Below, piece after piece: positions 2,811-59,407 of a stretch of DNA of 64,000 bases. Source of the stretch: an uncultured Gammaproteobacteria bacterium (GTDB lineage Bacteria > Patescibacteriota > Microgenomatia > Levybacterales > UBA12049). The notes under the pieces are model-generated. The model saw nothing but the letters and a program-made list of their open reading frames with translations, was not told the origin of the DNA and searched no databases. A program made the translations under genes and the position numbers. The stretch is taken from positions 8,129-72,128 of the forward strand of contig CAZHKZ010000002.1 of the NCBI GenBank assembly GCA_964533055.1. Reading direction: 5' to 3'. How positions within the stretch are numbered: the stretch's first letter is position 1; every line of letters begins with the position of its first letter.

Positions 2811-3601
2811 AAAAGCGTACCCTCTCAGTAATAATTCTTACAAAAAATGAAGAATCAATGATCGCAGATTGTTTGTCATCTGTATCATTTGCCGATGAGA
2901 TTGTCGTCGTTGACAATTATTCTACCGACTCAACTGTTGAAATCGCCAAAAAACAGCATGCAAAAGTTATTAGTACAAATGCAGCAAGTTTTTCTATTAG
3001 ACGCGAGATTGGCCTTCAGAAAGCCGGGAATACTTACATTTTTTATCTTGATGCTGATGAGAGAGTGTCTCCAGAGTTAAAAATTGAGATTCAAGATTTT
3101 TTGTCATCAGCTAAAGATACAGACGCATATATTATTAAAAGACAAAATTATTATCTCGGTAAAAATCCCTGGCCTAAAATTGAGCATTTTCCACGTTTCT
3201 TTAAGAGAACAAGTCTTAAGGGTTGGCGTGGCGATCTCCATGAATCACCCATTTTTAACGGTACTCAGGGTGAATTTTCGGGGTATATCGAGCATTTTAC
3301 ACACAGGAATTTTTCATCAATGGTGGCAAAGACGAATGAGTGGTCTGGTGTTGAGGCCAAGTTGAGATTTGATGCGTCTCATCCGAAGATGTCTTGGTGG
3401 AGATTCCCTAGAGTGATGCTTGGAGCCTTTTATGAGTCATTTGTGACTGCGCAGGGATTTAAGGCAGGAAAAGTAGGCTTTATGGAGAGTGTTTATCAAA
3501 GTTTTAGTATGTTCATCACGTACGCGAAGCTGTGGGAGCTTCAGGTTAATCAAGCGAACGCTGCAAAAAGTACTCATAAAAGGGAAAAATTGCTACAATA
3601 A
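2807..3601 (+). CDS. Family 2 glycosyltransferase (WaaE/KdtX-like), paralog of 983-1894
   Basis: GTG start overlaps the upstream TGA (GTGA). Reads SVIILTKNEESMIADCLSSVSFADEIVVVDNYSTDSTVEIA...YLDADERV, the same motif order as the gene at 983. Confidence 0.8.
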   Translation: MKKRTLSVIILTKNEESMIADCLSSVSFADEIVVVDNYSTDSTVEIAKKQHAKVISTNAASFSIRREIGLQKAGNTYIFYLDADERVSPELKIEIQDFLSSAKDTDAYIIKRQNYYLGKNPWPKIEHFPRFFKRTSLKGWRGDLHESPIFNGTQGEFSGYIEHFTHRNFSSMVAKTNEWSGVEAKLRFDASHPKMSWWRFPRVMLGAFYESFVTAQGFKAGKVGFMESVYQSFSMFITYAKLWELQVNQANAAKSTHKREKLLQ

Positions 3602-3605
3602 TACT

Positions 3606-4682
3606 GTGAAGATTGCAATTTTTGATCCTTATTTAGATACCATGTCAGGTGGAGAGAAATATATGCTTACTGCAGCACTCTCTTTGGCAAAGGACCATGA
3701 TGTGACAATTCTTTGGGACACATCTCAAAAATCAGAAATAGCACTCAAAGCGAAACGACGTTTTGGATTTGAGTTAGCACCATTTGCCTTCAAGGATTCT
3801 TTTTTTACAAAAAAAGTATCACTATTCTCACGTTTGATTCAGAGTAGGGCGTATGATGCGATTCTTGTACTAAGTGATGGAAGTATTCCTCTTGTTTCTT
3901 GTGATCTAGTCCTTCATTTTCAGTCGCCAATGGAATGGGTGAGAGCAGACTCATTCCTTTCTAGAATTAAGCTTTTTCGAGTTAAAAGATTTATCTGCAA
4001 TTCAGTTTTTACAAAAGAATATATAGATAAGCGTTTTCATATTGTTAGTGATATTGTCTATCCTCCCGTCTCAATCCAGGCTGATGGAGATTTGTCGATA
4101 AAAGAGAACTATATTCTCAATGTTGGAAGATTCGGGATTACTGGAAAGGGTTCTAGTCTTAAGAAGCAGGATGTTCTCGCAGATGTCTTTTCCGAGATGA
4201 TAAAAAGCGATCTTAAAAATTGGAAAATGGTCTTTATTATGAGTGTTATGGATCAGGAGAAAATAGATTGTGATAAATTTATCCAAAAATATAAAGGACA
4301 ACCGATTGAGTTTATCATTAATCCTACAAACGCAGAGCTTTGGTCCTGGTATAAAAAATCAAGTATTTACTGGCATGCATCTGGGTTTGGGGAGGACATC
4401 AGGGCTCACCCAGATAGAGCTGAGCACTTTGGGATTGCAACTGTGGAGGCGATGGGCGCTGGCCTTATCCCTATTGTGATTAATGCAGGTGGTCAGAAGG
4501 AGATTGTTCAGAACGGGGTAAATGGGTATTTATGGGATACAAAAGAGGAATTGGTAAAGAGAACTCTTGAAGTTATTGAAGATAAGAAGAAACGAACTGA
4601 AATGGCAAAAGCCTCGATAGATAGCGTACATCATTACTCGCTTGAAGAATTTGAGAGGAAAATTCAGGCAATTTTTCTATGA
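3606..4682 (+). CDS. Family 4 (GT-B) glycosyltransferase
   Basis: C-terminal EX7E-type motif HFGIATVEAMGAGLIPIVINAGGQKEIV. I chose the in-frame GTG at 3606 (VKIAIFDPY...) just after the upstream stop at 3601; the track start at 3489 overlaps the previous gene by 113 nt. Confidence 0.75.
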   Translation: MKIAIFDPYLDTMSGGEKYMLTAALSLAKDHDVTILWDTSQKSEIALKAKRRFGFELAPFAFKDSFFTKKVSLFSRLIQSRAYDAILVLSDGSIPLVSCDLVLHFQSPMEWVRADSFLSRIKLFRVKRFICNSVFTKEYIDKRFHIVSDIVYPPVSIQADGDLSIKENYILNVGRFGITGKGSSLKKQDVLADVFSEMIKSDLKNWKMVFIMSVMDQEKIDCDKFIQKYKGQPIEFIINPTNAELWSWYKKSSIYWHASGFGEDIRAHPDRAEHFGIATVEAMGAGLIPIVINAGGQKEIVQNGVNGYLWDTKEELVKRTLEVIEDKKKRTEMAKASIDSVHHYSLEEFERKIQAIFL

Positions 4683-6910
4683 AGTCGAAGCTCATTGCAC
4701 CGTTGGTATTTGTTCTTTGTCTGATTTTCTTTTTTAAAGCATTTTTCTTTAGTGGTTTATTGCCAATTCCTTCAGATTTGCTTGTTGGTTTGTTTCATCC
4801 ATTTAGGGACTCATATGCAAAAGAATATCCAAGAGGAATTCCATTTAAAAATTTTCTCCTTACCGACCCAATTACTCAGCAGATACCATGGAGAGATTTA
4901 TCATTTCAGGAGATGGGTTCAGGTAGTCTTCCTCTTTGGAACCCATATCAAATGGCTGGATATCCGCTCTTAGCGAATATTCAATCAGCACCTTTCTATC
5001 CATTCAATCTTCTTTTTTTAATTCTGCCATTCTCCCTTGGATGGTCAATGCTTATTATCTCTCAGCCCTTAATTGCGATGATAGGAATGTATCTTTTTCT
5101 GAGGCAAGAGAAATTGAGCAAAGAGAGTAGTATTTTTGCGTCGATTATTTTTGCGTTTAGTGGGTTTATGGTCGCATGGCTTGAATGGGGGACGATAGGT
5201 TCAACTGCTGCGTGGATGCCTCTAATGCTATATTTCTTTTCAAGGACAGTTATCGATAAGAGAAAATTACCCCCCTCCTTTTTGTTAGGATTTGCAGTTA
5301 TCTGCTCTTATCTTGCTGGGCATACTCAAACATTTTTCTATGAGATGGTTATTCTTGTCTCATATATAGCTTTTTGTTTCATTAGTAAAAAGTCTCAGCT
5401 TAAAAGCATCCTACCTTCATTATTGGCTATCGGAATTGCATCAAGTATCTTGTTGCCGCTAATCTTGATGCAGTTTCAGTTTATCAATCTTTCTGCGCGA
5501 ATGGTCGATCTTGATTGGCATGCTGTTGGGTGGTTTATTCCGTGGCAGAATCTGATTCAATTTATCGCCCCAAATTATTTTGGCAATCCTGCAACGGGAA
5601 ATTATTGGGGAGTATGGAACTATAGTGAGTTTTTGGGATACGTTGGCATTCTCCCGATAATTTTTGCTTTTGCTGCGCTTCTCTTTGTGAGAAGTCGACA
5701 GGTTTTTTACTTTGGTGCTGTTGCGTTCTTAGCATTTCTTATTGGATTCCCGACTGTGCTTGCATACCTACCTTTTCAAGCGGATATTCCCTTCCTATCG
5801 TCTGCACAGCCTACGCGAATTCTATTTGTTATAGATTTTGCGCTAGCAGTACTCTGTGCATATGGTCTGGAGGCATTTAAAAAAATGCCAAAAAAATCAT
5901 TATTCTTGCCCGCTGGGATTTTGCTTATTCTTGGGGTAATTTTTATAGTTTCAAGGTCAATGATTGGTAGTAGTGCATTGACTCAGGAGAATTGGCTTGT
6001 TGCTCAGAGGAATCTTATTTTCCCAGTAATTTTTACGCTTATTTCTATAGCAATCTTTGTGTTGAGCTCTTTTCTTCCCAGAGCTAGAAGGTTTTTACCA
6101 GTTATCATAATCATTGTTGCTACTATTGACCTCTTTTTAGTTATGCAGAAGTATACGCCATTTACAACTAGTCAATACTTCTATCCAGAAGTGAAGTTGC
6201 TTACATACCTTAAAGACAAGTCGGGGATAAATAGAGTTATGAGTCTGGATAGAAGGATTCTTCATCCAAATATCGCAACAAAGTATCGGATTCAGATGAT
6301 TGAAGGGTATGATCCTCTTTATCTCCTTCGTTATGGTGAGCTCTTAGCAGCGTCAAAAAGACAAATGCCTGATATTGCACCACCCTTTGGATTCTCGAGA
6401 ATACTCACAACAGATCGTTATCTGAGTCCAATTATCAATCTTCTTGGAGTCAAATATATTCTTAGTCTTAATGAGATTAATGACCCTAATCTCAAAGAAG
6501 TGTACGCTCAGGGTCAGACAAAGGTTTATCAAAATAAGCTAGCTCTACCCCGAACATTCTTTGCAGCTCAAGTAAGCACCGTTAGTTCTAAAGAGGGCTC
6601 GATAGAGTTCCTATTTAGAGAAAAGAATTTGTTGGATAGAGTAGTTGCTGAGACAACGCAGACGATCTCAGGGGAGTACTCCAAAGGCATCGTGGAGGTC
6701 ATATCATATGAGCCTAACAGTGTTCAATTGAAGACATCTAATAAGGGCGAGGGTTTTTTGGTGCTGACCGATAGTTTTTATCCAACCTGGAAAGCATATA
6801 TTGATGGGAAGTCAACTCAAATTTACCTTACAGACTTTTTGTTTAGAGGTGTTGTTGTGCCAAGCGGCGACCATCATGTAGAATTTATCAATACTGTGTT
6901 TGCAAGATGA
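4679..6910 (+). CDS. YfhO-family GT-C membrane glycosyltransferase
   Basis: 743 aa and polytopic. N-terminal loop LPLWNPYQMAGYPLLANIQSAPFYPFN and C-terminal FYPTWKAYIDGK...HHVEF are characteristic of YfhO-like proteins. ATGA overlap with the upstream gene. Confidence 0.7.
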   Translation: MKSKLIAPLVFVLCLIFFFKAFFFSGLLPIPSDLLVGLFHPFRDSYAKEYPRGIPFKNFLLTDPITQQIPWRDLSFQEMGSGSLPLWNPYQMAGYPLLANIQSAPFYPFNLLFLILPFSLGWSMLIISQPLIAMIGMYLFLRQEKLSKESSIFASIIFAFSGFMVAWLEWGTIGSTAAWMPLMLYFFSRTVIDKRKLPPSFLLGFAVICSYLAGHTQTFFYEMVILVSYIAFCFISKKSQLKSILPSLLAIGIASSILLPLILMQFQFINLSARMVDLDWHAVGWFIPWQNLIQFIAPNYFGNPATGNYWGVWNYSEFLGYVGILPIIFAFAALLFVRSRQVFYFGAVAFLAFLIGFPTVLAYLPFQADIPFLSSAQPTRILFVIDFALAVLCAYGLEAFKKMPKKSLFLPAGILLILGVIFIVSRSMIGSSALTQENWLVAQRNLIFPVIFTLISIAIFVLSSFLPRARRFLPVIIIIVATIDLFLVMQKYTPFTTSQYFYPEVKLLTYLKDKSGINRVMSLDRRILHPNIATKYRIQMIEGYDPLYLLRYGELLAASKRQMPDIAPPFGFSRILTTDRYLSPIINLLGVKYILSLNEINDPNLKEVYAQGQTKVYQNKLALPRTFFAAQVSTVSSKEGSIEFLFREKNLLDRVVAETTQTISGEYSKGIVEVISYEPNSVQLKTSNKGEGFLVLTDSFYPTWKAYIDGKSTQIYLTDFLFRGVVVPSGDHHVEFINTVFAR

Positions 6911-7884
6911 AAATAAGTGTCGTTATCCCAAACTACAATGGAGAGAAATTGCTCCCAAAGAATATACCTCGAGTTGTCACTGTCTTGAATGAATATTGCC
7001 AAAAGTTTTCGACAACAATTCAGTTAGTTATTTGTGATGATGCGTCAAAAGACAGCAGTGCCACATACCTAAAGGAACTTGAGAAAAAAAGTACGGATGG
7101 AAAGGTCTCATACACGATCGGAATTAGAGAGAAAAATGGTGGGTTTTCGGCAAATGTAAATTATGGAGTTAGTCTAGCAACGGGAGATGTTCTTATTTTA
7201 CTTAATACAGACGTGATTCCAGAAAAAGGGTTTCTTGAACCACTGATTAAGCATTTTAAAGATGAGAATGTTTTTGCTGTTGGATGTATGGATAAGAGTG
7301 TTGAGGAGGTTGGTCAGATTGTTCTAAGAGGGAGAGGGATTGGATCATGGGTCAGAGGATTCTTGCAGCATGGTAAAGGGGATTTGGCGATGAGCAATAC
7401 TCTCTGGGTGAGTGGAGGCAGCGGCGCATTCAGTAAAAAGATTTGGGATGAAGTTGGAGGACTAACTGAATTAATGAACCCATTTTACTGGGAAGATATA
7501 GATATTTCATATAGAGCTCAGAAGTTTGGGTATAAAGTTCGTTTTGAGAAAGAGAGTATAGTCAGACATGAGCATGAAGCTGGGTCAATTAAACAGAACA
7601 CAAAACCATATAAGGTAAGGGTTATTTCATACAGAAACCAATTTTATTTTGTTTGGCTCAATATTAGTGATTGGTCACTTATGCTTAATCATATATTCTG
7701 GTTGCCATTTCATATTTTTTCAGCTGCAAAAAGGAAAGATATTGCATTTCTTAAAGGATTTTCTCTTGCAATGCTTAATGTTGTTTTTGTGCTCAGGCAA
7801 AGAGCGCTCAATCTCAGAAGGTTCAAAATTAGCGATAAGATAATTTTAGGTCAATTTGCAAAGGAATCCTCAAATGATATTTGA
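6907..7884 (+). CDS. Family 2 glycosyltransferase
   Basis: Reads ISVVIPNYNGEKLL...VICDDASKDSS...LLNTDVIPEKGF...YWEDIDISYRAQKFG, a GT2 core. ATGA overlap. Confidence 0.8.
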   Translation: MKISVVIPNYNGEKLLPKNIPRVVTVLNEYCQKFSTTIQLVICDDASKDSSATYLKELEKKSTDGKVSYTIGIREKNGGFSANVNYGVSLATGDVLILLNTDVIPEKGFLEPLIKHFKDENVFAVGCMDKSVEEVGQIVLRGRGIGSWVRGFLQHGKGDLAMSNTLWVSGGSGAFSKKIWDEVGGLTELMNPFYWEDIDISYRAQKFGYKVRFEKESIVRHEHEAGSIKQNTKPYKVRVISYRNQFYFVWLNISDWSLMLNHIFWLPFHIFSAAKRKDIAFLKGFSLAMLNVVFVLRQRALNLRRFKISDKIILGQFAKESSNDI

Positions 7885-9802
7885 AGTAGCTTTTTTTTCT
7901 TTTGTTCTCTTCATAGTCTTTTATCTACCAGGGAGATTTATAGTAAGAAAGTTTGGTTATACATTTCAATCTCAGACAATTCATCTTCCAGTCTCTTTTG
8001 CTGTCGGACTTTCCTCATTCATATTCTGTACATTCCTCCTTTCATATATCCGCTTAGACTTTCTTTATAACTTGTTCATACTCGTTCCGATAATTTATGA
8101 ACTCAAACAGATGTATAGAATTCAAAAGAAGAGAAAGAAAAAATATAGCATTCCATTTCTTAAAATTCTCTTGCTTACTGCAGGTTCGCTTTGGATGACA
8201 TTTCTTATGTGGAATTCTGGCAGAATTATTGATAACTCAATTGTCTTCTATGCAGTTAACTCAGTTGATGCTATCTGGCATCTGAGTCTTATTGGGAACT
8301 TAACCCATTCATTTCCTCCAACACATCCTGGATTAGATCCAGTAACCCTAAAAGGATACAATTTTCTTTATGATTTCCTCTTAGCTAGGTTTGTTACCTT
8401 TTATAGCTTTGATAAATTAGATTTATTTTTTAGGTTGTTTCCTCCATTCATAGCAATTTTCTACGGTCTATCTGGGTTTGCATTAGCCCAGATGCTTAAA
8501 ATGAAAAAAATTACAGCTTTCATTTTTGTCTACCTGCTTTATTTTGGATTTGGTTTCGAAGAATTGCTCTCTCATATATTTAGAATTGATCTTGATCCAG
8601 GTATAGTACACTCTTCTGCAAACATGGTTGATCCATCAGTGATTCTTTCAGTGATTTTACTTTTTTGTATCTTCATTTTATTTTTCTCTGCAAAGAATGC
8701 CAAACAAACTTTATTGCCAGCAATAATGTTAGGGATACTTCCCATGATCAAAATTTATACAGCAGTTTTGGCATTTATATCTTTTGCATGTATCGTGTTA
8801 AAGGATCTTTTATCTAGAAAGTATCAATCTATTCCCTTTTTAATTTGCGCTGGAATTGTAGCTGCGACTTTCTATGTACCAACAAATTTTGGAGCAGGTT
8901 CACTAGTGTTTGCACCATTCTTGATCTTTAAACATTACATGGAAGGTGAAAAGGTTTTTCCTGATATGTTGTGGCCATTAAAGCTTGCGACCTATCAGGT
9001 TGATCATAATTTGATTAGAATTGTACAGCTTTATCTGATTGCCGTTCTAAGTTTTATTATTCCAAGTCTTGGAATAAATATGTTGTCATTGGTAGAGTTG
9101 AGAAATATTTTTAAAGTAAGAACACTATCAGACCAGAATATATTTTTGATTATATTTATTCTTGCTGGATTTGTTATCCCTACGCTTTTTATTCAAAGTA
9201 TTGCTGTTTTTGTCATTATGCAATTCATGTGGATAGCATGCATTATTCTTTTTATTCCAACTGCAAATTCTGTCGCCTATATTCTGCAAACCCCAGGGAA
9301 AATAAAAATCTTAATTCTTTTCTGTATATTTATTTTGCTTAGTCTGATTGAGATGGCACCGATCTATAAACTTTATTCATCTGAGCCAGAAAAATTTCAG
9401 TCTAATCAATTAGAACTTCTAATGCAATTGGGGAAAGTTGTTCCAAGCTCAAACTCTGTGCTTGTGATAAAGTCACCTGAGCAATCTGAGTACAATAAGA
9501 TACTCTACACAACGCCTCTTGTCTCTGCGCTCACTTCTCGTAACGTTTATTATGAGCCAGAGGTGCTTGAATTCGCAAAGTTAGATGAAGTGAGAAATAG
9601 CAGAATTACGAATACTGCTTATTTTGAGTTGATGCTCCAGAACTGTAACCGTGACAAAATTATTGATGAAATAAAGCAATTTAAGACTAGTACAGACGTA
9701 TCGTATCTGCTAGTATTTAAAAATTATTCCTGCCTCTCATCCATCCCTAATCTTAAGAAGATATATGGGAAGGATTCGCTTAGTCTGTACCAATTCCAAT
9801 AA
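7856..9802 (+). CDS. Polytopic integral membrane protein of unknown function (possible GT-C/polymerase-like)
   Basis: 648 aa, about 14 predicted hydrophobic helices and a roughly 150-aa C-terminal soluble region. No motif I recognise. The start could instead be the second ATG at 7874. Confidence 0.55.
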   Translation: MQRNPQMIFEVAFFSFVLFIVFYLPGRFIVRKFGYTFQSQTIHLPVSFAVGLSSFIFCTFLLSYIRLDFLYNLFILVPIIYELKQMYRIQKKRKKKYSIPFLKILLLTAGSLWMTFLMWNSGRIIDNSIVFYAVNSVDAIWHLSLIGNLTHSFPPTHPGLDPVTLKGYNFLYDFLLARFVTFYSFDKLDLFFRLFPPFIAIFYGLSGFALAQMLKMKKITAFIFVYLLYFGFGFEELLSHIFRIDLDPGIVHSSANMVDPSVILSVILLFCIFILFFSAKNAKQTLLPAIMLGILPMIKIYTAVLAFISFACIVLKDLLSRKYQSIPFLICAGIVAATFYVPTNFGAGSLVFAPFLIFKHYMEGEKVFPDMLWPLKLATYQVDHNLIRIVQLYLIAVLSFIIPSLGINMLSLVELRNIFKVRTLSDQNIFLIIFILAGFVIPTLFIQSIAVFVIMQFMWIACIILFIPTANSVAYILQTPGKIKILILFCIFILLSLIEMAPIYKLYSSEPEKFQSNQLELLMQLGKVVPSSNSVLVIKSPEQSEYNKILYTTPLVSALTSRNVYYEPEVLEFAKLDEVRNSRITNTAYFELMLQNCNRDKIIDEIKQFKTSTDVSYLLVFKNYSCLSSIPNLKKIYGKDSLSLYQFQ

Positions 9803-9804: not shown

Positions 9805-10521
9805 ATGAAATTATCAATTGTTGTCCCGATCTTTAATGAAGAAAAGACATTAGAGAAACTGCTCACTCGCTTAAATCGTCTAGTGATCCCCGGTGTTGTA
9901 CCTGAATTTATATTAGTAGATGATGGGTCTAGTGATGACTCAAAGAAGATAGCTCAAAATTTTGTAATTAATAAGAGAAATTTTTTCCTCTTTCTTCATA
10001 AAAGAAATGCTGGAAAAGGAGCTGCGGTTAGAACTGGGATTAAAAAAGCAAAAGGAGACTTCGTTGTTATTCAAGATGCAGACCTTGAGTATGATCCAGC
10101 TCAGTTAGAAGGTCTCATGAGACCAATTCTCAATCAAGAAGCGTTAGTTGTATATGGAACGAGGATTAAGCATTTTCCTGCGTTCAGAAAGGATCTTTCA
10201 AAAACACGTTTTTTTATTCATTTTATTGGCAATAGGCTCCTAAGTCTTTTAACAAGCCTTCTCTACTTTGAATGGATCACGGATATGGAAACATGTTATA
10301 AAATAATTCCACGTAAATTTTTCGAGAGAACTCAATTGAAATCTGAAGGGTTTTCATTCGAACCTGAAGTAACTGCAAAAATTCTTAAATCTGGACTTAA
10401 AATCAAAGAACTTCCAATTACGACCAGGCCTAGGGGGTATAAGCAAGGGAAAAAACTTAGGACAATTCCTGATGGTCTAGAGGCAGTCTGGGCATTGATA
10501 AAATATCGATTTATTGATTAA
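9805..10521 (+). CDS. Polyprenol-phosphate mannose/hexose synthase (Ppm1/DPM1-like GT2, soluble type)
   Basis: Reads LSIVVPIFNEEKTLEKLL...FILVDDGSSDDS...NAGKGAAVRTGIKKAKGDFVVIQDADLEYDP, the DPM1/GtrB-type GT2 signature. There is no C-terminal TM segment. Confidence 0.75.
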   Translation: MKLSIVVPIFNEEKTLEKLLTRLNRLVIPGVVPEFILVDDGSSDDSKKIAQNFVINKRNFFLFLHKRNAGKGAAVRTGIKKAKGDFVVIQDADLEYDPAQLEGLMRPILNQEALVVYGTRIKHFPAFRKDLSKTRFFIHFIGNRLLSLLTSLLYFEWITDMETCYKIIPRKFFERTQLKSEGFSFEPEVTAKILKSGLKIKELPITTRPRGYKQGKKLRTIPDGLEAVWALIKYRFID

Positions 10522-10538
10522 GTAGAAGTGGGAGAAAT

Positions 10539-12194
10539 ATGAAAACTACTTTGATCAAAAAGAATTCTATTATTCTTATTTGTATACTTATCCTCGCAGC
10601 GCTTTTACGTTTTGTATCTCTTGATTCTAATCCACCCTCACTGAGCTGGGATGAAGTAGCCTGGGGCTACAATGCCTATTCATTAGGGATTGATGGAAAG
10701 GATGAATTTGGACGATTTTTGCCGATAGATTTTCTTGAGTCATATGGTGATTTCAAGCCACCACTTTATGCATATTTAGATATTCTACCAGTAAAAATAC
10801 TGGGTCTAACTGATGCAGCGCCTCGAATTCCATCCGCCTTTTTCGGAGTGTTTACAGTTCTTGTAACCTACTTTTTATCCTTACGACTTTTTCCTAGGTC
10901 TTTGCGAAAAAAAGAATTTGCATTAGTTGCTGCATTTATTCTCGCAATATCACCTTGGCATATTATGCTCTCAAGAGGTGCATTTGAGGCAAATGTAGCA
11001 CTCTTTTTTATAACAACAGCTGGCTACTTTTTTCTCAAAGGTGTTCAGGAAAAGAGTTGGAGCATTGTTGTAGCAGCGGCTTTATTTGCAGCATCTTTTT
11101 ATATTTTCAACACTGCCAGAATTTTTTCCCCACTGCTTGTAGTTCTTTTTATATTGGTTTTTTGGAGGACATTGTTGAGGATGAGGGTGAAGATTCTAGT
11201 AGCCATATTTGTTGGAATTGCTATGATCTTGCCACTCATCGGATTTCTGCTTTCACCTCAAGCGAGTCTACGTTTTAAGGAGGTAAATATCTTCTCAGAT
11301 ACCTCGATTGTGACAAATTCGAATCAAGAAATTACGAATGATAAAAATGCAGTTTATGGGAAGCTATTTCATAATAGACGACTTGGTTATGCGACTGAAT
11401 ATGCAAAGCACTACATGGATCATTTCAATTTTTCCTTCCTTTTCTTAAAAGGCGATGAGAACTCTCGCTTTTCAACTATGGACGTTGGTGTAATGTATCT
11501 TTGGCAATTCCCAGCTTTATTAATTGGTGCCTTAGTACTATTTAGAAAGCGAGAAGGGGAGTGGTGGATCATTCCGACATGGATACTTTTAGCGATTGTA
11601 CCAGCTGCAGTGGCACGTGAGACGCCTCATGCGCTGAGAATTGAGAATGCGATTCCTTTTTATCAGATTTTGACAGCGTACGGGCTTGTCCACCTATGGC
11701 ATTCTCTCAAAGAAAAAATATTGTCTAACAAATGGACAACGACTATAAAATCTATTGGGGGGTTAATCATTGTTGTGTCATTTATATACTTTATATGGGG
11801 ACTTACTGTGCACTATTCGCGTGAGACTTCAGTTGATTGGCAGTACGGCTATAAAGATTCTTTGAAATACGCCAAGGAAAATGAATCAAAATATGATCAA
11901 GTGCGATTTACCGGTAAGCTTGGTAGGCCATATATTTACTATCTCTACTATAATAGAATTCTCCCAGAAGATTTCCGTCGAGATTCTACGATTCGTAGAG
12001 ACGAGTTTGGGTTTGTGTATGTTGAAAGAGTGGGAAAGTATACTTTTGCGAGTCCTACGATTAATGAGGCTCCGTTTGGTGACAGTAATGTGCTTGTAAT
12101 TGAGGATAGAAAGCGAGTGCCAGATAATGTGAAAATCTTAAAGAAATTTAATCTTTTGAACGGAGAGACTATTCTTGTTGGATACACTTTTTAG
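10539..12194 (+). CDS. PMT_2/ArnT-family GT-C glycosyltransferase (protein-O-mannosyltransferase-like), paralog 1
   Basis: A GGGAG Shine-Dalgarno-like motif lies at -9. The N-terminal TM helix is followed by a loop with the DE motif (LSWDEVAWGYNAYSL) and FKPPLYAYL. 551 aa, polytopic. Confidence 0.75.
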   Translation: MKTTLIKKNSIILICILILAALLRFVSLDSNPPSLSWDEVAWGYNAYSLGIDGKDEFGRFLPIDFLESYGDFKPPLYAYLDILPVKILGLTDAAPRIPSAFFGVFTVLVTYFLSLRLFPRSLRKKEFALVAAFILAISPWHIMLSRGAFEANVALFFITTAGYFFLKGVQEKSWSIVVAAALFAASFYIFNTARIFSPLLVVLFILVFWRTLLRMRVKILVAIFVGIAMILPLIGFLLSPQASLRFKEVNIFSDTSIVTNSNQEITNDKNAVYGKLFHNRRLGYATEYAKHYMDHFNFSFLFLKGDENSRFSTMDVGVMYLWQFPALLIGALVLFRKREGEWWIIPTWILLAIVPAAVARETPHALRIENAIPFYQILTAYGLVHLWHSLKEKILSNKWTTTIKSIGGLIIVVSFIYFIWGLTVHYSRETSVDWQYGYKDSLKYAKENESKYDQVRFTGKLGRPYIYYLYYNRILPEDFRRDSTIRRDEFGFVYVERVGKYTFASPTINEAPFGDSNVLVIEDRKRVPDNVKILKKFNLLNGETILVGYTF

Positions 12195-12195
12195 G

Positions 12196-13839
12196 ATGAA
12201 GAAAAACACTTTTTTACTACTAGGGATCTTGCTAATTGCTTTCATTTTGCGTTTTTATGCGCTAGGTGATATTCCAAAGTCACCAGATTGGGATGAGGCA
12301 GCACTCGGCTACAATGCGTATTCGCTTCTGCATACAGGCATGGATGAATATGGCACTAGACTGCCAGTTGTCTTACGCTCCTTTGATGATTATAAGCCAG
12401 CTCTCTATGCATACCTCTCTGTTCCCTCTGTTGCAATTTTTGGCCTCAATGTATTTTCAATACGACTCATCTCTGCTCTTTTTGGAGTTGCAACAGTTAT
12501 AGCTTTTTATTTTCTTGTCAAAAAATTAACAAAGCATGATTTATTTTCTCTCATAGCAACTCTTCTTCTCGCAATTTCTCCATGGCATCTCCAGTTCTCG
12601 AGAACGGCATTTGAGGCAAATCTAGGCCTAAGTTTAATTGTCTTTACAGCATACTTTTTCCTCAAGGGAATTGAAAGGCACTGGTATTTGTCATTGAGCG
12701 CTTTTTTTGCTGGGCTTTCACTTTATGCTTATCAAAGTGAGAAGGTATTTACTCCTCTTTTCGTCTGCTTACTCTTAGTGATTTATTTTAGAAACCTTAT
12801 TCTTGTCAAGAAAAAATTCTTGATAACAGCCTTACTTGTAGGTGGTATTACTCTAACGCCATTTATTGTCTATACCATACAAAATCCTGAATCACTGGCT
12901 CGAGCAAAAGGAACTGTTGCTCTTATGACTGAGCGGGAGAAAATAAAAAATGATAATAGATATCACGATAATATTGCACAACAAAATAGCTTAGGAAGAG
13001 TGATTGACTCAAGGTTTTGGGTATATGGGTCTACTATTGTAAGTGGGTACTTTTCCCATTTTGATCCTAAGTGGCTCTTCCTTGAGGGAGATAATCCTCG
13101 TCACCACGCGCCTGATATGGGAATATTGTATTTTTTTGAATTCCCACTTCTTCTGATGGGTATGTACGCTCTCTTTTTTGATAAAAAGTATCTTAAAACC
13201 AAGAATACTAAGTTGTTAATAGCTGGGTGGTTACTTTTATCTCCTCTTGCTCCATCGGTAACAAATGATGTTCCTCATGCCGTGAGAAGCCTAACCATGC
13301 TGCCTATGATCGAGTTTATTGTGGCATTAGGAGGGGTCTCTTTTTTCTCATTTATTAAAAATATTAGGGTACATGGAAGAAGTCTCATGTATCCATTTAT
13401 CGTTGCTGGAGTAGTAGTCGTATTTTTCAATGTCAGCTACTATCTAGATCAGTATTATGTCCAAGCCCCTTATTTCAATGCAAAGGATTGGCAGTACGGA
13501 TACAAAGAGGTGGTGGCAAAGTTGGAGTCCCCAGAGTTTAGTGACATGAAGATTGTAGTTTCGGATGTTACCCCAATGGATCAGTCATACATCTTCTTTC
13601 TTTTTTATACTCAATTTGACCCGTCTAAATATCATGCGAGAATGGCTGAGTATGAGCGGACAGGTGTGCGTTCTTTTGATAACTATATCTTCAGAAAGAT
13701 TGAGTGGGAAAAAGATGCGCAAGAAAAAGATGCTATCTATGTTGGATCACCAGATAATTTCTCTGGTGAAACAATTGAATTTGGAGATGTATATTATCCC
13801 GATGGAACAAAAGCAATTGAGATTGTTAAACCACTATAG
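12196..13839 (+). CDS. PMT_2/ArnT-family GT-C glycosyltransferase, paralog 2 (tandem)
   Basis: Reads PDWDEAALGYNAYSLLHTGMDEYGTRLP...YKPALYAYL, clearly homologous to 10539-12194. Start placed at the ATG immediately after the upstream stop; the track start at 12175 overlaps. Confidence 0.75.
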   Translation: MKKNTFLLLGILLIAFILRFYALGDIPKSPDWDEAALGYNAYSLLHTGMDEYGTRLPVVLRSFDDYKPALYAYLSVPSVAIFGLNVFSIRLISALFGVATVIAFYFLVKKLTKHDLFSLIATLLLAISPWHLQFSRTAFEANLGLSLIVFTAYFFLKGIERHWYLSLSAFFAGLSLYAYQSEKVFTPLFVCLLLVIYFRNLILVKKKFLITALLVGGITLTPFIVYTIQNPESLARAKGTVALMTEREKIKNDNRYHDNIAQQNSLGRVIDSRFWVYGSTIVSGYFSHFDPKWLFLEGDNPRHHAPDMGILYFFEFPLLLMGMYALFFDKKYLKTKNTKLLIAGWLLLSPLAPSVTNDVPHAVRSLTMLPMIEFIVALGGVSFFSFIKNIRVHGRSLMYPFIVAGVVVVFFNVSYYLDQYYVQAPYFNAKDWQYGYKEVVAKLESPEFSDMKIVVSDVTPMDQSYIFFLFYTQFDPSKYHARMAEYERTGVRSFDNYIFRKIEWEKDAQEKDAIYVGSPDNFSGETIEFGDVYYPDGTKAIEIVKPL

Positions 13840-14475: not shown

Positions 14476-16161
14476 GTGAGAATTAAGAGATTTGACTTAT
14501 TTTGTCTAGGTATTATCTTCGCAGAATCAATTGTATTCTTATTTGATTTTTTCATGAACCCGGGTAGATTTGCAAGTTTTGATGCCCCATTCCATATCAC
14601 CAATATTGCTCAGTTTGCAAATTCCTTACTTGACGGTAATTTCCCGGTTGTTTGGACAGATGGATTTGCAAATTATGGGCTTCCAATTGGTATTGTAGCA
14701 CACCAAATGACCTCCTATTTAGGCGCCCTGTTCTCATTACTCTTTAATGATCCCTATATGGGTTTTAAGGCTGTTGCTTTTATTGGAGTTGCGGGATCAG
14801 CACTGCTTTATTTTGTTTTTTTGAAACTTTATTTTTCTCCTCAAGTTGCACTTGCAGGAGCGACTCTTTTTAACCTCGCATCCTACAGGATCTTTAACTT
14901 TTATGTGAGAGGTGCGCTCCCTGAGATTTTTTCAGCCGTTTTTCTTCCCTTGATCCTTGTGGGGCTTTATTTTTTTATTGAGAAGAAAAATAGTAAAGGA
15001 TTGTTTCTCTTTGCACTATCAATATTCCTGTTAGCGGTGACTCATCCATTTATGCTTCTCATTTATGGAATTATCTATGGTCCTTACGCGCTCTATTTGC
15101 TATCAAAGAATGCTGGAGCAAAGTCTCTCCTTACAAAAAACTCAGTAAAGAAAGTTGTCTCGCTTTTTATTGCGCTCGGAATTGGCATTGTAAGTGCTAG
15201 TTTTTATCTCATACCTTTGAGTCGTGAAATAAGGTATTTTTATTACGGTCTCAACCCATCTAATCTTGAGCCGAATAGCTTTTTTTCATTTTCGTCATTC
15301 CTTAATTTCTCATGGCCGTATTTTACGCCAACTGAGACCTTCCCTCGTGGCCATATAGTGACATTGGGGATACTTGAGCTTGTTGGATTGTTAGCGGGGA
15401 TTGTTCTACTCGTTGTGCTTTTGAGAAAGAAAGAAAAGACAGAAAATGATGGATTTGTTATTTTTTCTGGGATTATCGCTCTCATTCTGATTTTCTTTAT
15501 GACCTCACTTTCAAGTGTTTTTTACACCTACTTACCTCTGCTTAATCAGATTCAATTTCCCTGGAGAATGATCTCTGGTCTTATTTTTATTATCCCAATT
15601 TTTTATTGCTATGTATTTTCAAAGAAGAATTCTCTCTTTCTTCTTGGCATATTTATGATGATTATTTTGTTGTTGAGACTACCTGAGTTATATGGTAAGA
15701 ATTACACATATATCCCCAAAAGTAGCTATGACAAGACTCTTATTAATGTCCACTCAGTACTTATGAACACGATTTGGACAGGAAAGACTGAAGAGTATCC
15801 TGTGAAGTCTTTGAAGGGAGAAATAATTGAGGGGAATGGCAGCATTGTTAAAAGAGAAGAGCATGTCGCAAAGAGAGAGTACGAAGTTCAAGCAGATAGT
15901 GCGATCAGGCTTGTAGATAATACATTTTACTTTCCAGGGTGGAAGGTATTTGTTGATGGGGTAGATACTCCTATTGAATTTCAGGACCCATCATATAGGG
16001 GAGTGATTACATACGCTGTGCCAGCAGGATCGCATCAGGTCGAGGTAGTATTTAAAGATACAAAGATCCGTTTAGTCAGCAAGATTTTGAGTCTTGGGGG
16101 CCTGATATTTTTGACTGGACTATTTATCATGAGAAAAAGAGTAGGTAGAATTATTTTTTAA
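14476..16161 (+). CDS. Uncharacterized polytopic membrane protein, GT-C-like with YfhO-like C-terminal domain (family A, copy 1)
   Basis: GTG start. Conserved N-terminal loop DGNFPVVWTDGFANYGLPIGI and C-terminal FYFPGWKVFVDGV...YRGVITYAVPAGSHQVEVVF, followed by a terminal TM helix. The C-terminal motif resembles that of the YfhO-like gene at 4679. Confidence 0.6.
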   Translation: MRIKRFDLFCLGIIFAESIVFLFDFFMNPGRFASFDAPFHITNIAQFANSLLDGNFPVVWTDGFANYGLPIGIVAHQMTSYLGALFSLLFNDPYMGFKAVAFIGVAGSALLYFVFLKLYFSPQVALAGATLFNLASYRIFNFYVRGALPEIFSAVFLPLILVGLYFFIEKKNSKGLFLFALSIFLLAVTHPFMLLIYGIIYGPYALYLLSKNAGAKSLLTKNSVKKVVSLFIALGIGIVSASFYLIPLSREIRYFYYGLNPSNLEPNSFFSFSSFLNFSWPYFTPTETFPRGHIVTLGILELVGLLAGIVLLVVLLRKKEKTENDGFVIFSGIIALILIFFMTSLSSVFYTYLPLLNQIQFPWRMISGLIFIIPIFYCYVFSKKNSLFLLGIFMMIILLLRLPELYGKNYTYIPKSSYDKTLINVHSVLMNTIWTGKTEEYPVKSLKGEIIEGNGSIVKREEHVAKREYEVQADSAIRLVDNTFYFPGWKVFVDGVDTPIEFQDPSYRGVITYAVPAGSHQVEVVFKDTKIRLVSKILSLGGLIFLTGLFIMRKRVGRIIF

Positions 16162-16165: not shown

Positions 16166-17863
16166 ATGAGATTTTTTAAGGATAACTTTTCATCTCTTCT
16201 TTTTCTTTTACTCCTCTCAGTAGTGACCATTCTCCCAGCACTTTTATACCCCCAGAGATCAGCCAACATGGACGGCATTGTTCATACTCTTGTTCCAAAT
16301 CTTTTCGCAAAGGCAATAAGTCAGGGCGACTTCCCTGTGACATGGGTTGATGGGTTCGCAAATTATGGGCTACCACTTGGAATTATTTCTCATCAAGTGA
16401 CCACATACTTAACTGCATTTATTATCCTTATTGTTCAAAATCCAGTAGTTGCATTTAATATAGTCGGTTTTATCGGAATTCTTCTCTCGAATATTTTTTT
16501 CTTTCTCTTTTTAAAAAAATACTTTTCAACACCTACGTCACTCACCGCAGTAGTTCTCTTTAATTTCTCACCATATAGAATTCTTAATTTTTATATTAGA
16601 GGTGCAATGCCTGAATTCTTTGCCAGCGTGTTCATACCCCTCATACTCCTCAGCCTTTTTGGCATATTTAAGGAAAGAAGAGTGTCAAGCTTTTTCCTCC
16701 TCATCCTGTCGGTGTGCTTTCTCATATTGACCCATCCTTTTATGTTAGTGGTAAGCCTCTTTCTCGTTGTTCCATACATTCTCTTTCTTACTGTTACAGA
16801 TGAGAAAATAGGTGAGTGGATAAGATCCTTTTTTAGAAAGAATATTCGTCCCATTATCGTGTCTTCTCTTGGTTTTGTAGTTGGCACAGGAATAGCATCT
16901 TATTTTCTCCTTCCGCTTCAAAAAGAGATTCAGTATTTTTATTATGGACTTTCTCCAAATCATCTAACCGCCAATAGCTATCTCACTCTTTATAATTACG
17001 TCGCCAACCCATGGGCTTACTTTACGAAGCTTGATATTGTGCATAGAGGATTCCTCATTAATGTGGGAATAATTGAATCACTTCTGGTTGTTTTAGCAGG
17101 AGGATTTTTTCTTTATAAAATTGTGAGTCTCAGAAGAGCCTATAAGGTAAGTATTGTTGATTTTGGCTTCTTTTGCTCCCTTATCATTATCTTTATGATG
17201 AGTCCATGGAGCACAGTTTTTTATGAGAAAATCCCAATGTTAAGTAACGTGCAGTTCCAATGGCGAATGCTTTCAGGCTTTATATTTCTTCCCCCTATCA
17301 TCGCAGCCTTTTTTCTCTCGAAGGTATCATCGCTAAAGTATCATGTACTTCTCATCCTCACTGTCCTTGTAGTAATAATGCCTCAACTTTATGGAAAGAA
17401 CTACACGCAGTACCCACAAGGGTATTACTCGTTTACGCCATTGAATCTTCATGCGACTGTTATGAATACGATTTGGAGTGGTGAGTCAGGAGAGTATCCT
17501 GTAGGTAAGCCTAAGGCTGAAATTATCCAGGGAGATGGATCGGTAAAGATTGAGAAGATGAAAGATTCACAGAGAGCATATCTTATTAATGCAAAGAGTG
17601 ATGTCCGCGTTGTTGATCGAACATTCTATTTTCCTGGATGGAATCTTTTAGTTGATGGCGTAAATCAACCGATTCAGTTCCAAGATCCTCTCTACAGAGG
17701 GGTTATTACCTATGATGTTCCCAAAGGTGATCATCGTATAGTGCTTGATTTTAAGCCAACAAAAACACGAATGGTTGGGGAATATCTTTCACTATTCTTT
17801 ATAGGTATAGTAGTAGGTATGTATTTATTTAGAAAAAAGATCCAGAGATTTATGCGAGAATAA
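16166..17863 (+). CDS. Uncharacterized polytopic membrane protein, tandem paralog of 14476-16161 (family A, copy 2)
   Basis: Reads QGDFPVTWVDGFANYGLPLGI ... FYFPGWNLLVDGV...YRGVITYDVPKGDHRIVLDF. It has the same architecture and similar length (565 vs 561 aa) as copy 1. Confidence 0.6.
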   Translation: MRFFKDNFSSLLFLLLLSVVTILPALLYPQRSANMDGIVHTLVPNLFAKAISQGDFPVTWVDGFANYGLPLGIISHQVTTYLTAFIILIVQNPVVAFNIVGFIGILLSNIFFFLFLKKYFSTPTSLTAVVLFNFSPYRILNFYIRGAMPEFFASVFIPLILLSLFGIFKERRVSSFFLLILSVCFLILTHPFMLVVSLFLVVPYILFLTVTDEKIGEWIRSFFRKNIRPIIVSSLGFVVGTGIASYFLLPLQKEIQYFYYGLSPNHLTANSYLTLYNYVANPWAYFTKLDIVHRGFLINVGIIESLLVVLAGGFFLYKIVSLRRAYKVSIVDFGFFCSLIIIFMMSPWSTVFYEKIPMLSNVQFQWRMLSGFIFLPPIIAAFFLSKVSSLKYHVLLILTVLVVIMPQLYGKNYTQYPQGYYSFTPLNLHATVMNTIWSGESGEYPVGKPKAEIIQGDGSVKIEKMKDSQRAYLINAKSDVRVVDRTFYFPGWNLLVDGVNQPIQFQDPLYRGVITYDVPKGDHRIVLDFKPTKTRMVGEYLSLFFIGIVVGMYLFRKKIQRFMRE

Positions 17864-17867: not shown

Positions 17868-18419
17868 ATGAAATACATTTATATTTTTATAGTATTTCTC
17901 TATCTTGCGATTACAACAGCTCTGTATTTCCAGCGAAATAGTGAGAGGATGTCATTGCCACTCACACCTTTTGTCTCTGATGATGCTTCAGCTCAAAGAT
18001 TAGCATATAGCTTTGCATATGACACCACAGATAATTCTCTTTTTATTGTAAGATTGGTTCATAATAAGGTTGAAACATCTCTCCATACATTTTTCTCATC
18101 AGCACTTAGGGCAGCAGACATACCCTTTCTCTTTGGCCTCTCAAAGACAGTTTCTTCACCTTATCAAATGGATTACAAGATACCCCCATTATTCTTAGTT
18201 GAATTACCCTTCTTTTTATTCTCTTGTTGGTACTTCATAACTAGGTACGAAAATGAGAAAAAAACTGTGATAGTCTTTGCACTTTCAGGAATAGTGAGTC
18301 TTATGATTGTGGGACTCTTTACCCCAGCTCTTCATCCATTGACTTTGCTTCCCCTTGTTCTCTGTATAAGAACGTTCACAGGTATTGGTGTTGTTAGTTT
18401 TATAAAAAGTAAAAAATGA
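17868..18419 (+). CDS. Hypothetical small membrane protein
   Basis: 183 aa with hydrophobic helices at both ends. It sits within the operon, and the downstream gene overlaps it with ATGA. Confidence 0.45.
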   Translation: MKYIYIFIVFLYLAITTALYFQRNSERMSLPLTPFVSDDASAQRLAYSFAYDTTDNSLFIVRLVHNKVETSLHTFFSSALRAADIPFLFGLSKTVSSPYQMDYKIPPLFLVELPFFLFSCWYFITRYENEKKTVIVFALSGIVSLMIVGLFTPALHPLTLLPLVLCIRTFTGIGVVSFIKSKK

Positions 18420-20077
18420 AAGAAAAAATTTGTATCGTTGTATTTATCTGTATAGGGATCTTTTTGCGTGTTTATCAATTTGGCTCAGTACCCGCGGGTC
18501 TTTTTTCGGATGAAATATCTATTGCTGTTAATAGCAAGACGATTGCTCAAAGTGGAGTTGATGAATACGGAAGGACATATCCATTTGCATTTGAATCGCT
18601 TTCAGATTATAAAATGCCTGGATATATTTATCTCAGCGCAGTTGCATACAAAATTTTTGGTCCATCAGTTGCATCAGTACGAATTACTGCACTCATTGCC
18701 TCTCTAATTAGTATCTTCTCATTCGCGTATTTAGCACAACTCCTTTTTCCTAAGAGGAAAAATATTTTTCTCTATACGTGTCTTGTTGTTTCTCTTTGCC
18801 TATTTCATATTCATTTTTCTCGAATTGCATATGAGACGATGCTGGCTACGATGTGGCTCAGTATATTCCTCATTGGTTTTTGGAAAGTTGTCCATGAAAA
18901 GATACGGTTACACTGGGTAGTCATCACTATCTGCTGTGCAATCTTTAGCATGTGGTCTTACTATGCCCCTCGTTTTATCATCCCATTATTCTCTTTTGGC
19001 TATCTATTCTATTTAATGCTAATGGCGGAGAAGGGGAAGCGACTTTCATATCGACCCTGGCTGATTGTACTTGCTGCGACAGTAATAGCGTACCTCCCGA
19101 CATTTTTTGGATCCAAAATTGACAATAGGCCTCTAAGCTATCTTATGTCAGATACGGGTGGGGGAATAATTGCATCGGTTTTACTCAAGGCAAGATCAGT
19201 TCTCGCATCATTCACTTGGATATTCAACCTTGAATTCTTATTCGATAAAGGTGATCAATTTGCTTTTAGACATGGTACAAAAAATAACGGTGTCTTTATG
19301 AGTATATTTTTAGTTCCATATATTCTTGGCCTCCTTTTTATTTTTAAAAACTTTGCTATGAAGAACAAATCAATAGTATTTATTTGCATGTTTGCGATTG
19401 TAGCGGGGCTCCCGTCATCCCTGACATCACCGGTTCCTTACGCACCAAGACTGCTTCCAATGGTCCTTCCACTAACTCTACTTATTAGCTTAGGCATTGT
19501 TGGATGCAGAACATTACTTGAGAAAACGAGGAGGTTTGTGCAGATAGGGATTATAGTGGGAGTAGTATGCTTGCTTATGTATCAAATTCTTGTCTTCAGC
19601 CATCTTTACTTTGTTCATTTTGCGAAAGACAGTCAGCCAGAATTCTCGCAAGCATCAGTTGACCTGGGAAAATATATTGCCATTCAGCATGCTAGTGCAC
19701 CTGAAAATAATATTTATTACTTGAATGGTAAGAGTTGTCATAATTGGGGGCACGATGATCTTTATTTATGGTATTACACAGAACTTCCAAATAAAGAGTT
19801 GATCGCATGGAATAATTTGTTTAGAGATGAGAGATATAAAGAATCGAGCCCATTTGATGCGTATGACCATATCATTGCCCCATCTGGTCATATCGGCTCT
19901 ATCTTTATTAATTTACCACTTGAGGAAGTAATCTCTGCTCCAAAAGGGTCATTGATAGTTCGATGTGGTATCAATGAATCGTCTATTGAGAAGAATAATG
20001 AGAAAATTGTAAAGGCCTTTTATATGTATCCAAAAGAAAGTAGAGAGCTTTTTTATATTGTGACAGTTAAGCTCTAG
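18416..20077 (+). CDS. PMT_2/ArnT-family GT-C glycosyltransferase, paralog 3
   Basis: Reads LFSDEISIAVNSKTIAQSGVDEYGRTYPFAFESLSDYKMPGYIYL, with the same loop-1 DE motif and Y(K)xPxYIY pattern as 10539 and 12196. Confidence 0.7.
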   Translation: MKEKICIVVFICIGIFLRVYQFGSVPAGLFSDEISIAVNSKTIAQSGVDEYGRTYPFAFESLSDYKMPGYIYLSAVAYKIFGPSVASVRITALIASLISIFSFAYLAQLLFPKRKNIFLYTCLVVSLCLFHIHFSRIAYETMLATMWLSIFLIGFWKVVHEKIRLHWVVITICCAIFSMWSYYAPRFIIPLFSFGYLFYLMLMAEKGKRLSYRPWLIVLAATVIAYLPTFFGSKIDNRPLSYLMSDTGGGIIASVLLKARSVLASFTWIFNLEFLFDKGDQFAFRHGTKNNGVFMSIFLVPYILGLLFIFKNFAMKNKSIVFICMFAIVAGLPSSLTSPVPYAPRLLPMVLPLTLLISLGIVGCRTLLEKTRRFVQIGIIVGVVCLLMYQILVFSHLYFVHFAKDSQPEFSQASVDLGKYIAIQHASAPENNIYYLNGKSCHNWGHDDLYLWYYTELPNKELIAWNNLFRDERYKESSPFDAYDHIIAPSGHIGSIFINLPLEEVISAPKGSLIVRCGINESSIEKNNEKIVKAFYMYPKESRELFYIVTVKL

Positions 20078-43840: not shown

Positions 43841-44211
43841 TAAATCAAAGTAATATTTTGATTAGAATCTTGTCTAAGGACAGCGTGCGACTATTGATCT
43901 TAGTCACTTTACTAGTGTTAACAATTATCTCAGGCAAGTTCCCCTACGTAAATCTGATTGCAAATCATTATTTCTATGGAATTGGAGTCGTGATGGTGCT
44001 TGCGTTGTTATTTTTTAAACAATACATTAATGAAAGGAGAAATAAGATTATACTAATTTGCGAAATTGTCATAGCAGTAATAGTCAAGATTATCGGGAAT
44101 CAACAGGTAGAAGATATAGTTGGTTTTATTTTATTCGTTACATTATTATTAATTGTAATACTTGGCATAGCATCGCAAAGAAGTAAGCTCGCTTTGTATT
44201 TGAAGAAATGA
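43816..44211 (+). CDS. Hypothetical small membrane protein
   Basis: 131 aa with 3 hydrophobic helices. It overlaps the end of the upstream gene by 25 nt, and the downstream gene is ATGA-coupled to it. Confidence 0.4.
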   Translation: MEKKNKKLINQSNILIRILSKDSVRLLILVTLLVLTIISGKFPYVNLIANHYFYGIGVVMVLALLFFKQYINERRNKIILICEIVIAVIVKIIGNQQVEDIVGFILFVTLLLIVILGIASQRSKLALYLKK

Positions 44212-46100: not shown

Positions 46101-46102
46101 TT

Positions 46103-46130
46103 TTGCGTTTATCAAATAGAATGCTAAAAT
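46103..46130 (+). promoter_or_regulatory. Candidate promoter (TTGCGT-16 nt-TAAAAT) for the GtrB-like gene, leaderless geometry
   Basis: The -10 ends 6 nt before the ATG at 46137. It lies in a 36-nt gap following a 13-gene translationally coupled run. Confidence 0.25.
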
Positions 46131-46136
46131 AGAAGC

Positions 46137-59406: not shown

Positions 59407-59407
59407 C

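Follow-up and report, generated by a model that had tools for sequence, protein, structure and literature searches.

The 64,000-nucleotide stretch of contig CAZHKZ010000002.1 analysed here (hereafter the window) probably encodes a multi-component transmembrane glycosylation module, the predicted acceptor of which is most likely an envelope glycopolymer made by the cluster of more than 60 kb that surrounds it. The module comprises a predicted polyprenyl-phosphate hexose synthase, a 238 aa family 2 glycosyltransferase (GT2) devoid of transmembrane (TM) helices (positions 9805-10521, + strand), and a tandem pair of predicted glycosyltransferases of the GT-C_A class (551 aa, 10539-12194, and 547 aa, 12196-13839, both + strand). 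Transmembrane glycosylation by a polyprenyl-phosphate glycosyltransferase (Pren-P GT) and a GT-C enzyme is an already known kind of module; here it is found in a Microgenomates-type (Levybacteria-like) bacterium of the Candidate Phyla Radiation (CPR), a group of mostly uncultured bacteria with tiny genomes and an essentially unknown surface chemistry. Literature searches on GT-C or mannosyltransferase systems in CPR/Patescibacteria yielded only passing genome-annotation remarks. A preliminary description of the window had read the three genes as a Ppm1/Pmt-type pair for protein O-mannosylation. The coordinates and gene types that it gave agree with the open reading frame (ORF) calls and Pfam matches, and the mechanistic class that it proposed, a Pren-P GT beside GT-C enzymes with acidic residues in their first loop, stands; the specific Ppm1 and Pmt identities are not supported.

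The GT2 gene is tightly packed against its upstream neighbor, its ATG at 9805 following a stop codon at 9802, and its product matches the Pfam family Glycos_transf_2 with 113.9 bits (E 1e-32). No hydrophobic 19-mer exceeds the detection threshold, indicating that the protein has no TM helix. The structures that match it best are precisely those of the three Pren-P GTs representing the DPMS, GtrB and ArnC class, and the alignment with the dolichol-phosphate mannose synthase PfDPMS covers its full length, including the regions of the interface helices and the acceptor loop; amphipathic interface helices and an acceptor loop are indeed present after the GT-A core. Published roles of the PfDPMS active-site residues (PMC5526996, PMC12690121) were mapped onto the alignment of the GT2 family. 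The DAD motif of the metal and diphosphate site is invariant (D91-A-D93, aligned with D89-A-D91 of PfDPMS), as are the arginine that binds the acceptor phosphate (R120, corresponding to R117 of PfDPMS, R122 of GtrB and R128 of ArnC) and F183, the counterpart of PfDPMS F177.

The residues that contact the nucleotide and the sugar in PfDPMS tell a different story, and they leave the proposed Ppm1 (mannose) identity unsupported. The metal ligand Q93 is replaced by an invariant glutamate (E95), the mannose-O3 ligand H94 by an invariant tyrosine (Y96), and the guanine-stacking G68-L69 by an invariant G70-K71 (L69 becoming K71), while K178, which contacts mannose O4/O6, is unconserved, being serine in the window protein and E, D or N in its relatives. 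The family carries DADLEY in place of the DADLQH signature of DPMS/Ppm1, and its scores against PfDPMS, which uses mannose, and GtrB, which uses glucose, are equal (82 vs 80 bits). The opposite assignment, to the GtrB/CsbB/ArnC clade, was also considered and rejected: at 238 aa the protein lacks the two C-terminal TM helices of that clade, and the family models match it only in its N-terminal half (ArnC over residues 1-133, PgfS over residues 1-107). No NCBIfam model reaches its cut-off, the best being AglJ with 100.8 bits against a cut-off of 325. By sequence, the protein is thus a predicted Pren-P GT that falls outside both the bona fide DPMS/Ppm1 enzymes and the GtrB type; mannose is a possible sugar for its module.

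Downstream of the GT2 stop codon (10521), a GGGAG ribosome-binding site precedes the ATG of the first GT-C gene at 10539, and the ATG of the second, at 12196, lies 1 nt past the stop of the first at 12194. With 33% identity between them (phmmer E 2e-77), the two proteins both exceed the Pfam gathering cut-offs for PMT_2 (26.1 bits) and PMT (PF02366, 22.7 bits), scoring 37.5 and 33.2 bits, respectively, for the 10539 protein and 45.6 and 38.1 bits for the 12196 protein. They have in common a W-D-E directly after TM1, a D-E-(F/Y)-G motif and a D-x-K-P-P region. In the 10539 protein these correspond to the invariant W37-D38-E39, D55-E56 and D71-x-K73-P-P; the 12196 protein retains W-D-E, D-E and D-Y-K-P. 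The tandem PMT_2 paralogs with a loop-1 DE of the preliminary description are therefore real. The PF02366 match begins at model position 2-4 in both proteins, which puts D38-E39 near model position 25; the acidic pair falls in the same loop as in Pmt and ArnT.

The predicted structure of the 10539 protein (pLDDT 87.3) comprises about 11 TM helices, of which TM1 spans residues 4-25 and has a positively charged N-terminus, a long conserved loop (240-317) and, at the C-terminus, an alpha/beta domain of about 120 aa that is soluble. Its first outer loop, following TM1, carries D38-E39, D55-E56 and D71-x-K73-P-P. The pair thereby falls into the GT-C class with a conserved acidic motif in the first outer loop. 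Closer affiliations are harder to draw. Direct phmmer searches of PDB sequences with both proteins as queries returned nothing meaningful, and the sole PDB match of the family profile was a marginal one to ArnT (5ezm; E 0.046, 15.5 bits), within which K73-P-P aligns with K85-P-P of ArnT. ArnT is also the best two-way Foldseek match (TM-scores 0.57/0.58), and STT3, PglB and AglB are among the top fold matches, the fold being as near to STT3 and ArnT as to Pmt. Neither protein matched PMT_4TMC (PF16192) at E <= 0.01 or reached the cut-off of any NCBIfam model (best Agl23, 37.6 bits, cut-off 126).

Homologs of the GT2 and of the GT-C proteins number in the thousands at 53-59% identity, and all named ones belong to Levybacteria, Microgenomates or Patescibacteria. 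Synteny was assessed in a sample of 80 loci from different GTDB species. The ortholog of the 12196 gene lies directly downstream of that of the 10539 gene in 63 of the 69 evaluable loci, with a median gap of -4 nt, and the acidic and K-P motifs are kept at 97% or more in both GT-C lineages (80 species for the 10539 type, 66 orthologs for the 12196 type). A GT2 copy is found no more than 6 kb upstream of the 10539 ortholog in 28 of 61 loci, and a membrane protein with at least six predicted TM segments comes next after the GT2 in 25 of the 32 loci that bear one. In the other seven, the gene after the GT2 instead encodes a soluble protein, some 195 aa long, that has no counterpart in the window. 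A cassette of Wzx, three GT2s, GT4, YfhO, GT2, the 238 aa GT2 and one or more GT-Cs recurs in three related genomes, Levybacteria genomes included; in one of them, a complete genome of 762 kb, two PMT_2 genes come after a second copy of the GT2, an arrangement like that of the window, and in another locus a Wzx gene comes directly after one GT2 copy. The most conserved unit is the GT-C pair, with the GT2 as a cluster-level partner.

The surroundings of the module bear directly on its likely acceptor. According to its Pfam and NCBIfam content, a glycan-biosynthesis supercluster extends from the first gene to about 62 kb, nearly the entire window, and includes two Wzx-type flippases, a small initiating phosphoglycosyltransferase (at 59399), a 1,037 aa Wzy_C-like protein and about 20 soluble GT2 and GT4 enzymes, together with epimerases/dehydratases, a DegT aminotransferase, acetyltransferases, methyltransferases and aminosugar enzymes. 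Hydropathy identifies 16 large polytopic membrane proteins in the window, nine of which can be assigned to GT-C families. Both the map of the window and the synteny data show the Pren-P GT and the GT-Cs to be genetically linked inside a glycopolymer locus. Among characterized systems, most bacterial PMT_2 GT-Cs add Gal, Glc or GlcNAc to teichoic acids or wall polysaccharides (PMC8035078); GtlB, GttB, CsdD/F, GtsC and GacL decorate lipoteichoic acid, wall teichoic acid or wall polysaccharides (PMC8035078). An envelope glycopolymer is favored as the acceptor because of this polysaccharide context, the many GT-C families present, the lack of Ser/Thr-rich neighbors and the precedents among characterized PMT_2 enzymes.

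The fold and conserved residues of the GT2 suggest that it would sit on the inner face of the membrane via its amphipathic helices and transfer one sugar from a nucleotide sugar onto polyprenyl phosphate. The lipid-linked sugar would then be flipped outward, for which a Wzx-type flippase of the cluster or an unlinked protein is a candidate; known variants of such systems pair a cytoplasmic GT-A enzyme with a Wzx flippase (PMC8035078). As their fold, topology and invariant acidic motifs indicate, the translationally coupled 10539 and 12196 proteins, both with their catalytic motifs intact, would hand the sugar over to an acceptor at the outer membrane face. The same donor pool probably serves further GT-Cs of the cluster, including the paralogs at 18416 and 22516, which would differ in acceptor or linkage specificity.

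Several observations weigh against this interpretation. Only 4 of 78 loci have the GT2 as the immediate upstream neighbor of the 10539 ortholog, and none of the Gottesman- and Chisholmbacteria-type loci has a GT2 copy within 6 kb. Because adjacency is rare and the GT2 is missing within that distance in some loci, the pairing of donor enzyme and GT-Cs is cluster-level and not strictly pairwise. GtrA had no match anywhere in the window, nor does any GtrA-like gene adjoin the GT2 or the pair. A second synthase, at 46137, could be the donor source in place of the GT2 at 9805. Finally, proteins are targets of closely comparable machinery: in streptococci, GtrB or PgfS act together with GT-Cs of the YfhO type to glycosylate protein tails rich in Ser/Thr (PMC12041528), and enzymes of the same classes glycosylate proteins in actinobacteria as well.

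This last point leads to the first competing explanation, in which the sugar that the GT2 attaches to its lipid carrier, be it mannose or a different one, is transferred by the pair to Ser/Thr residues of secreted, pilus or S-layer proteins. We regard it as unlikely, though deserving of serious attention. In its favor, the PF02366 match is above threshold with an invariant, PMT-typical loop-1 D-E, a ManC gene lies inside the cluster, paired GT-Cs are known from Pmt1-Pmt2 and PgfM1/M2, and general O-glycosylation systems need no linkage to their substrate genes. Against it stand the absent PMT_4TMC domain and the extra C-terminal soluble domain, the fold that is equally near to STT3/ArnT and Pmt, and the unconserved mannose and guanine contacts of the GT2. 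The cluster around the module is moreover one of polysaccharide assembly and holds numerous further GT-C families, and a search for Ser/Thr/Pro-rich ORFs returned none in the window and a single one, probably spurious, in the 80 related loci, leaving the protein acceptor assumed in the preliminary description unsupported. Since defining features that were tested fail on both the GT2 and the GT-C side, the label of Ppm1/Pmt protein O-mannosylation should be dropped.

Rather improbable, in our assessment, is that the GT2 and the GT-C pair are mere neighbors, with the GT2 acting as a conventional cytoplasmic GT2 on a lipid-PP-linked repeat unit and the GT-Cs either using the donor of the 46137 enzyme or acting in a polymerase- or ligase-like manner on lipid-PP-oligosaccharides. 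The rarity of direct adjacency, the many loci that have the pair without a GT2 within 6 kb and the presence of a second, canonical Pren-P GT in the window would all fit such an arrangement, as would STT3, PglB and AglB, which use PP-linked oligosaccharides, as top fold matches. However, the structural proximity of the GT2 to the three Pren-P GTs, its conserved acceptor-phosphate arginine and interface helices, and the polytopic membrane protein that comes next in most GT2-bearing loci argue otherwise, and the K-P-P aligned with the lipid-phosphate-binding lysine of ArnT fits a lipid-monophosphate donor. [quoted passage not shown]

The predicted envelope-glycopolymer module can be compared with several characterized systems. 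It resembles in layout the Gram-positive multi-component systems CsbB/GtcA/YfhO, GtlA/GtlB, CsdAB/CD/EF, GacI-GacJ/GacK/GacL and Bacillus subtilis YkcC/YkcB (PMC8035078), in which a GT-A enzyme loads polyprenyl phosphate, a PMT_2- or YfhO-type GT-C transfers the sugar outside, and the genes lie among wall-polysaccharide genes; GacI/GacK, in which the GT-A lacks TM helices and the flippase is of the Wzx type, is a precedent. In contrast to these systems, the GT2 described here derives from a CPR-wide clade, has DADLEY instead of DADLQx and is without TM helices, the window yielded neither a small membrane partner nor a flippase of the GtrA type, and a conserved, translationally coupled GT-C pair is accompanied by two paralogs in a locus with an unusually high GT-C count. 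Three small proteins, at 13841 (- strand), 17868 and 24030, were considered as GacJ-like partners and rejected, having no family matches; an ortholog of the 13841 protein occurs in only 1 of the 80 loci.

With actinobacterial Ppm1/Pmt (GT39), the module shares a soluble DPMS-like domain, a PF02366-positive GT-C with a loop-1 Asp-Glu, and a ManC gene in the cluster; it differs in the unconserved DPMS contact residues, the missing PMT_4TMC and additional C-terminal domain, the lack of a fold preference for Pmt and the lack of acceptor-type proteins nearby. In Mycobacterium tuberculosis, the ppm1 and pmt genes are not known to be neighbors. The ArnC/ArnT system (GT83) likewise combines a Pren-P GT with a GT-C_A enzyme bearing a C-terminal periplasmic domain, and the K-P-P motif aligns with ArnT K85, but the GT2 of the window is without the two TM helices of ArnC, Ara4N genes are absent from the window, and the similarity to ArnT is marginal (E 0.046). 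In the streptococcal GtrB/PgtC2 and PgfS/PgfM1/PgfM2 systems (PMC12041528), a Pren-P GT again acts with one or two GT-Cs, there to add Glc or GalNAc to Ser/Thr-rich tails; unlike here, the GT-Cs are YfhO-type, the GT2s are GtrB-type with TM helices, and the genes for the adhesin substrates are linked to the pgf operon.

The mycobacterial systems for lipomannan/lipoarabinomannan (LM/LAM) and arabinogalactan (Ppm1 with PimE, MptA/B/C, Emb and Aft) offer a further parallel, in that one or two lipid-monophosphate donors feed many GT-Cs outside the membrane. Weak GT87 and MptA_B matches in related loci and a weak AftD-like match at 40418 recall this system, which depends on polyprenyl-phosphate mannose and decaprenyl-phosphate arabinose; there is, however, no detectable orthology, and in the window a single locus unites the GT-Cs with Wzx/Wzy-type genes. 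A bolder extension, which we put forward as a doubtful speculation, is that in Microgenomates-type CPR bacteria the main envelope glycopolymer is built largely outside the membrane by many GT-Cs (at least 9, possibly about 16), fed by two lipid-monophosphate donors made by the TM-less DADLEY synthase and the GtrB-type enzyme, as a compact analog of mycobacterial LAM/arabinogalactan assembly in which the 10539 and 12196 proteins would form an obligate heterodimer like Pmt1-Pmt2 or EmbA-EmbB.

Nine of the 16 polytopic proteins, as mentioned above, can be assigned to GT-C families. In addition to the pair, these include a 510 aa paralog (22516-24048, + strand; PMT_2 45.1 bits; phmmer E-values of 1e-51 to 1e-60 with the tandem pair) that keeps I-D-E and D-E-Y-G, and a diverged 553 aa paralog (18416-20077, + strand; PMT_2 19.5 bits, sub-threshold) that keeps S-D-E and D-E-Y-G and is related to the other three with phmmer E-values of 1e-18 to 1e-34. 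A 485 aa protein (53488-54945, + strand) has the strongest PMT_2 match of all (64.8 bits), with SWRQAD replacing the DE of loop 1, and no phmmer relation to the four paralogs was found. The three further paralogs once proposed at 18416, 22516 and 53488 are thus reduced to the first two, and what had been counted as five paralogs is a family of four plus one separate PMT_2-domain GT-C.

The remaining assignable proteins are more distant. A 743 aa YfhO-family GT-C (4679-6910, + strand; Pfam YfhO 64.6 bits) belongs to a cassette conserved on the upstream side, GT4-YfhO-GT2-(X)-GT2s. Two tandem polytopic proteins of the PTPS_related/DUF6541 type, assigned by Pfam (14476-16161 and 16166-17863, + strand; mutual phmmer E 1e-139), are linked to the 10539 family with an hhalign probability of 95.2%, which identifies them as distant GT-C homologs. 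The same holds for a 510 aa polytopic protein without Pfam match (20987-22519, + strand), which hhalign aligns with residues 12-236 of the 10539 family (probability 95.6%, E 1e-8). The preliminary description had overlooked these GT-C proteins, along with several polytopic proteins that have no assignment and the GtrB/ArnC-type synthase at 46137.

Other polytopic proteins were noted in passing. Immediately upstream of the GT2 lies a gene for a 12-TM protein (7856-9802, with a probable start at 7874 giving 642 aa) that has no Pfam or NCBIfam match; orthologs with phmmer scores of 395-619 sit between the 6907-type GT2 and the 238 aa GT2 in four of the related loci. Comparison by hhalign linked neither this protein nor YfhO to the 10539 family. 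A further pair of polytopic paralogs (phmmer E 1e-108), without Pfam match, is encoded convergently within 31671-34662, at 31671 (+ strand) and 33160 (- strand), and in both members TM1 is followed by the motif G-V-D-(I/V)-W. The gene at 40418-43840 encodes a 1,140 aa protein that is polytopic in its N-terminal part, contains a DUF5667 domain and weakly matches AftD-type GT-Cs (E 3e-4); it is possibly a large GT-C with an extracellular carbohydrate-binding part.

The second synthase of the window belongs to a candidate second three-component set (43816-47069, + strand), consisting of a 131 aa 4-TM protein, which is GtrA-sized, a 630 aa polytopic protein and a GtrB/ArnC-type GT2, the first two without Pfam match. 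This GT2 (46137-47069, 310 aa) has two C-terminal TM helices and matches the ArnC (173.9 bits) and PgfS (138 bits) models over their full length, marking it by sequence as a canonical GtrB-type Pren-P GT. Of the two Wzx-type flippases (Polysacc_synt) detected with Pfam, the one at 26683-27960 (+ strand) is a candidate flippase for a repeat unit or a lipid-linked sugar, and the other (42-983) is truncated. A ManC-like mannose-1-phosphate guanylyltransferase is encoded at 58321-59406 (+ strand), as the preliminary description had stated; it matches TIGR01479 with 228.7 bits over residues 3-356, in the guanylyltransferase part, and has NTP_transferase and ManC_GMP_beta-helix domains. It is a possible source of GDP-mannose and, lying 48 kb from the GT2, points only to a possible availability.

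The gene next to it encodes the small initiating phosphoglycosyltransferase (59399-60073, + strand; Pfam Bac_transf 203.5 bits, TIGR03025 254.7 bits), whose presence points to a lipid-PP-linked polysaccharide pathway for the locus. The 1,037 aa Wzy_C-like protein (50368-53481) has about 25 hydrophobic segments, its Wzy_C match being sub-threshold (27.7 vs 31.7 bits), and could be a polymerase, a ligase or an enzyme resembling O-oligosaccharyltransferases. If it is an O-oligosaccharyltransferase, protein glycosylation in the bacterium could use it instead of the PMT_2 proteins.

The window has a G+C content of about 37% and carries nearly all of its genes on the + strand. RecO (62108-62656) marks the end of the glycan cluster, beyond which the window closes, at 64000, within a glycyl-tRNA synthetase-like ORF that begins near 62680; tRNA and Rfam scans of the whole window were negative. 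For the GT4 of the upstream cassette, the longest-ORF call (3489-4682, GTG start at 3489, 397 aa) overlaps the preceding GT2, and the corresponding gene on a matching metagenome contig is called as 358 aa, which would place its start at 3606. Many records of metagenome-assembled genomes with the Microgenomates cassette (third-party assemblies) are titled "uncultured Gammaproteobacteria bacterium", which looks like taxonomic mislabeling.

The main wider interest of these findings lies in an unusually GT-C-rich glycan supercluster that is conserved in small-genome Microgenomates. A lineage of this type appears to devote more than 60 kb to surface glycan assembly, one related complete genome measuring only 762 kb, and much of this assembly appears to pass via lipid-linked monosaccharide donors and GT-Cs outside the cell. 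The labels "dolichol-phosphate mannosyltransferase" and "glycosyltransferase family 39" attached to these CPR proteins should not be taken as evidence for mannose or for protein O-mannosylation. For biochemistry in a heterologous host, the conserved GT2 and the tandem pair of GT-Cs offer clearly defined targets.

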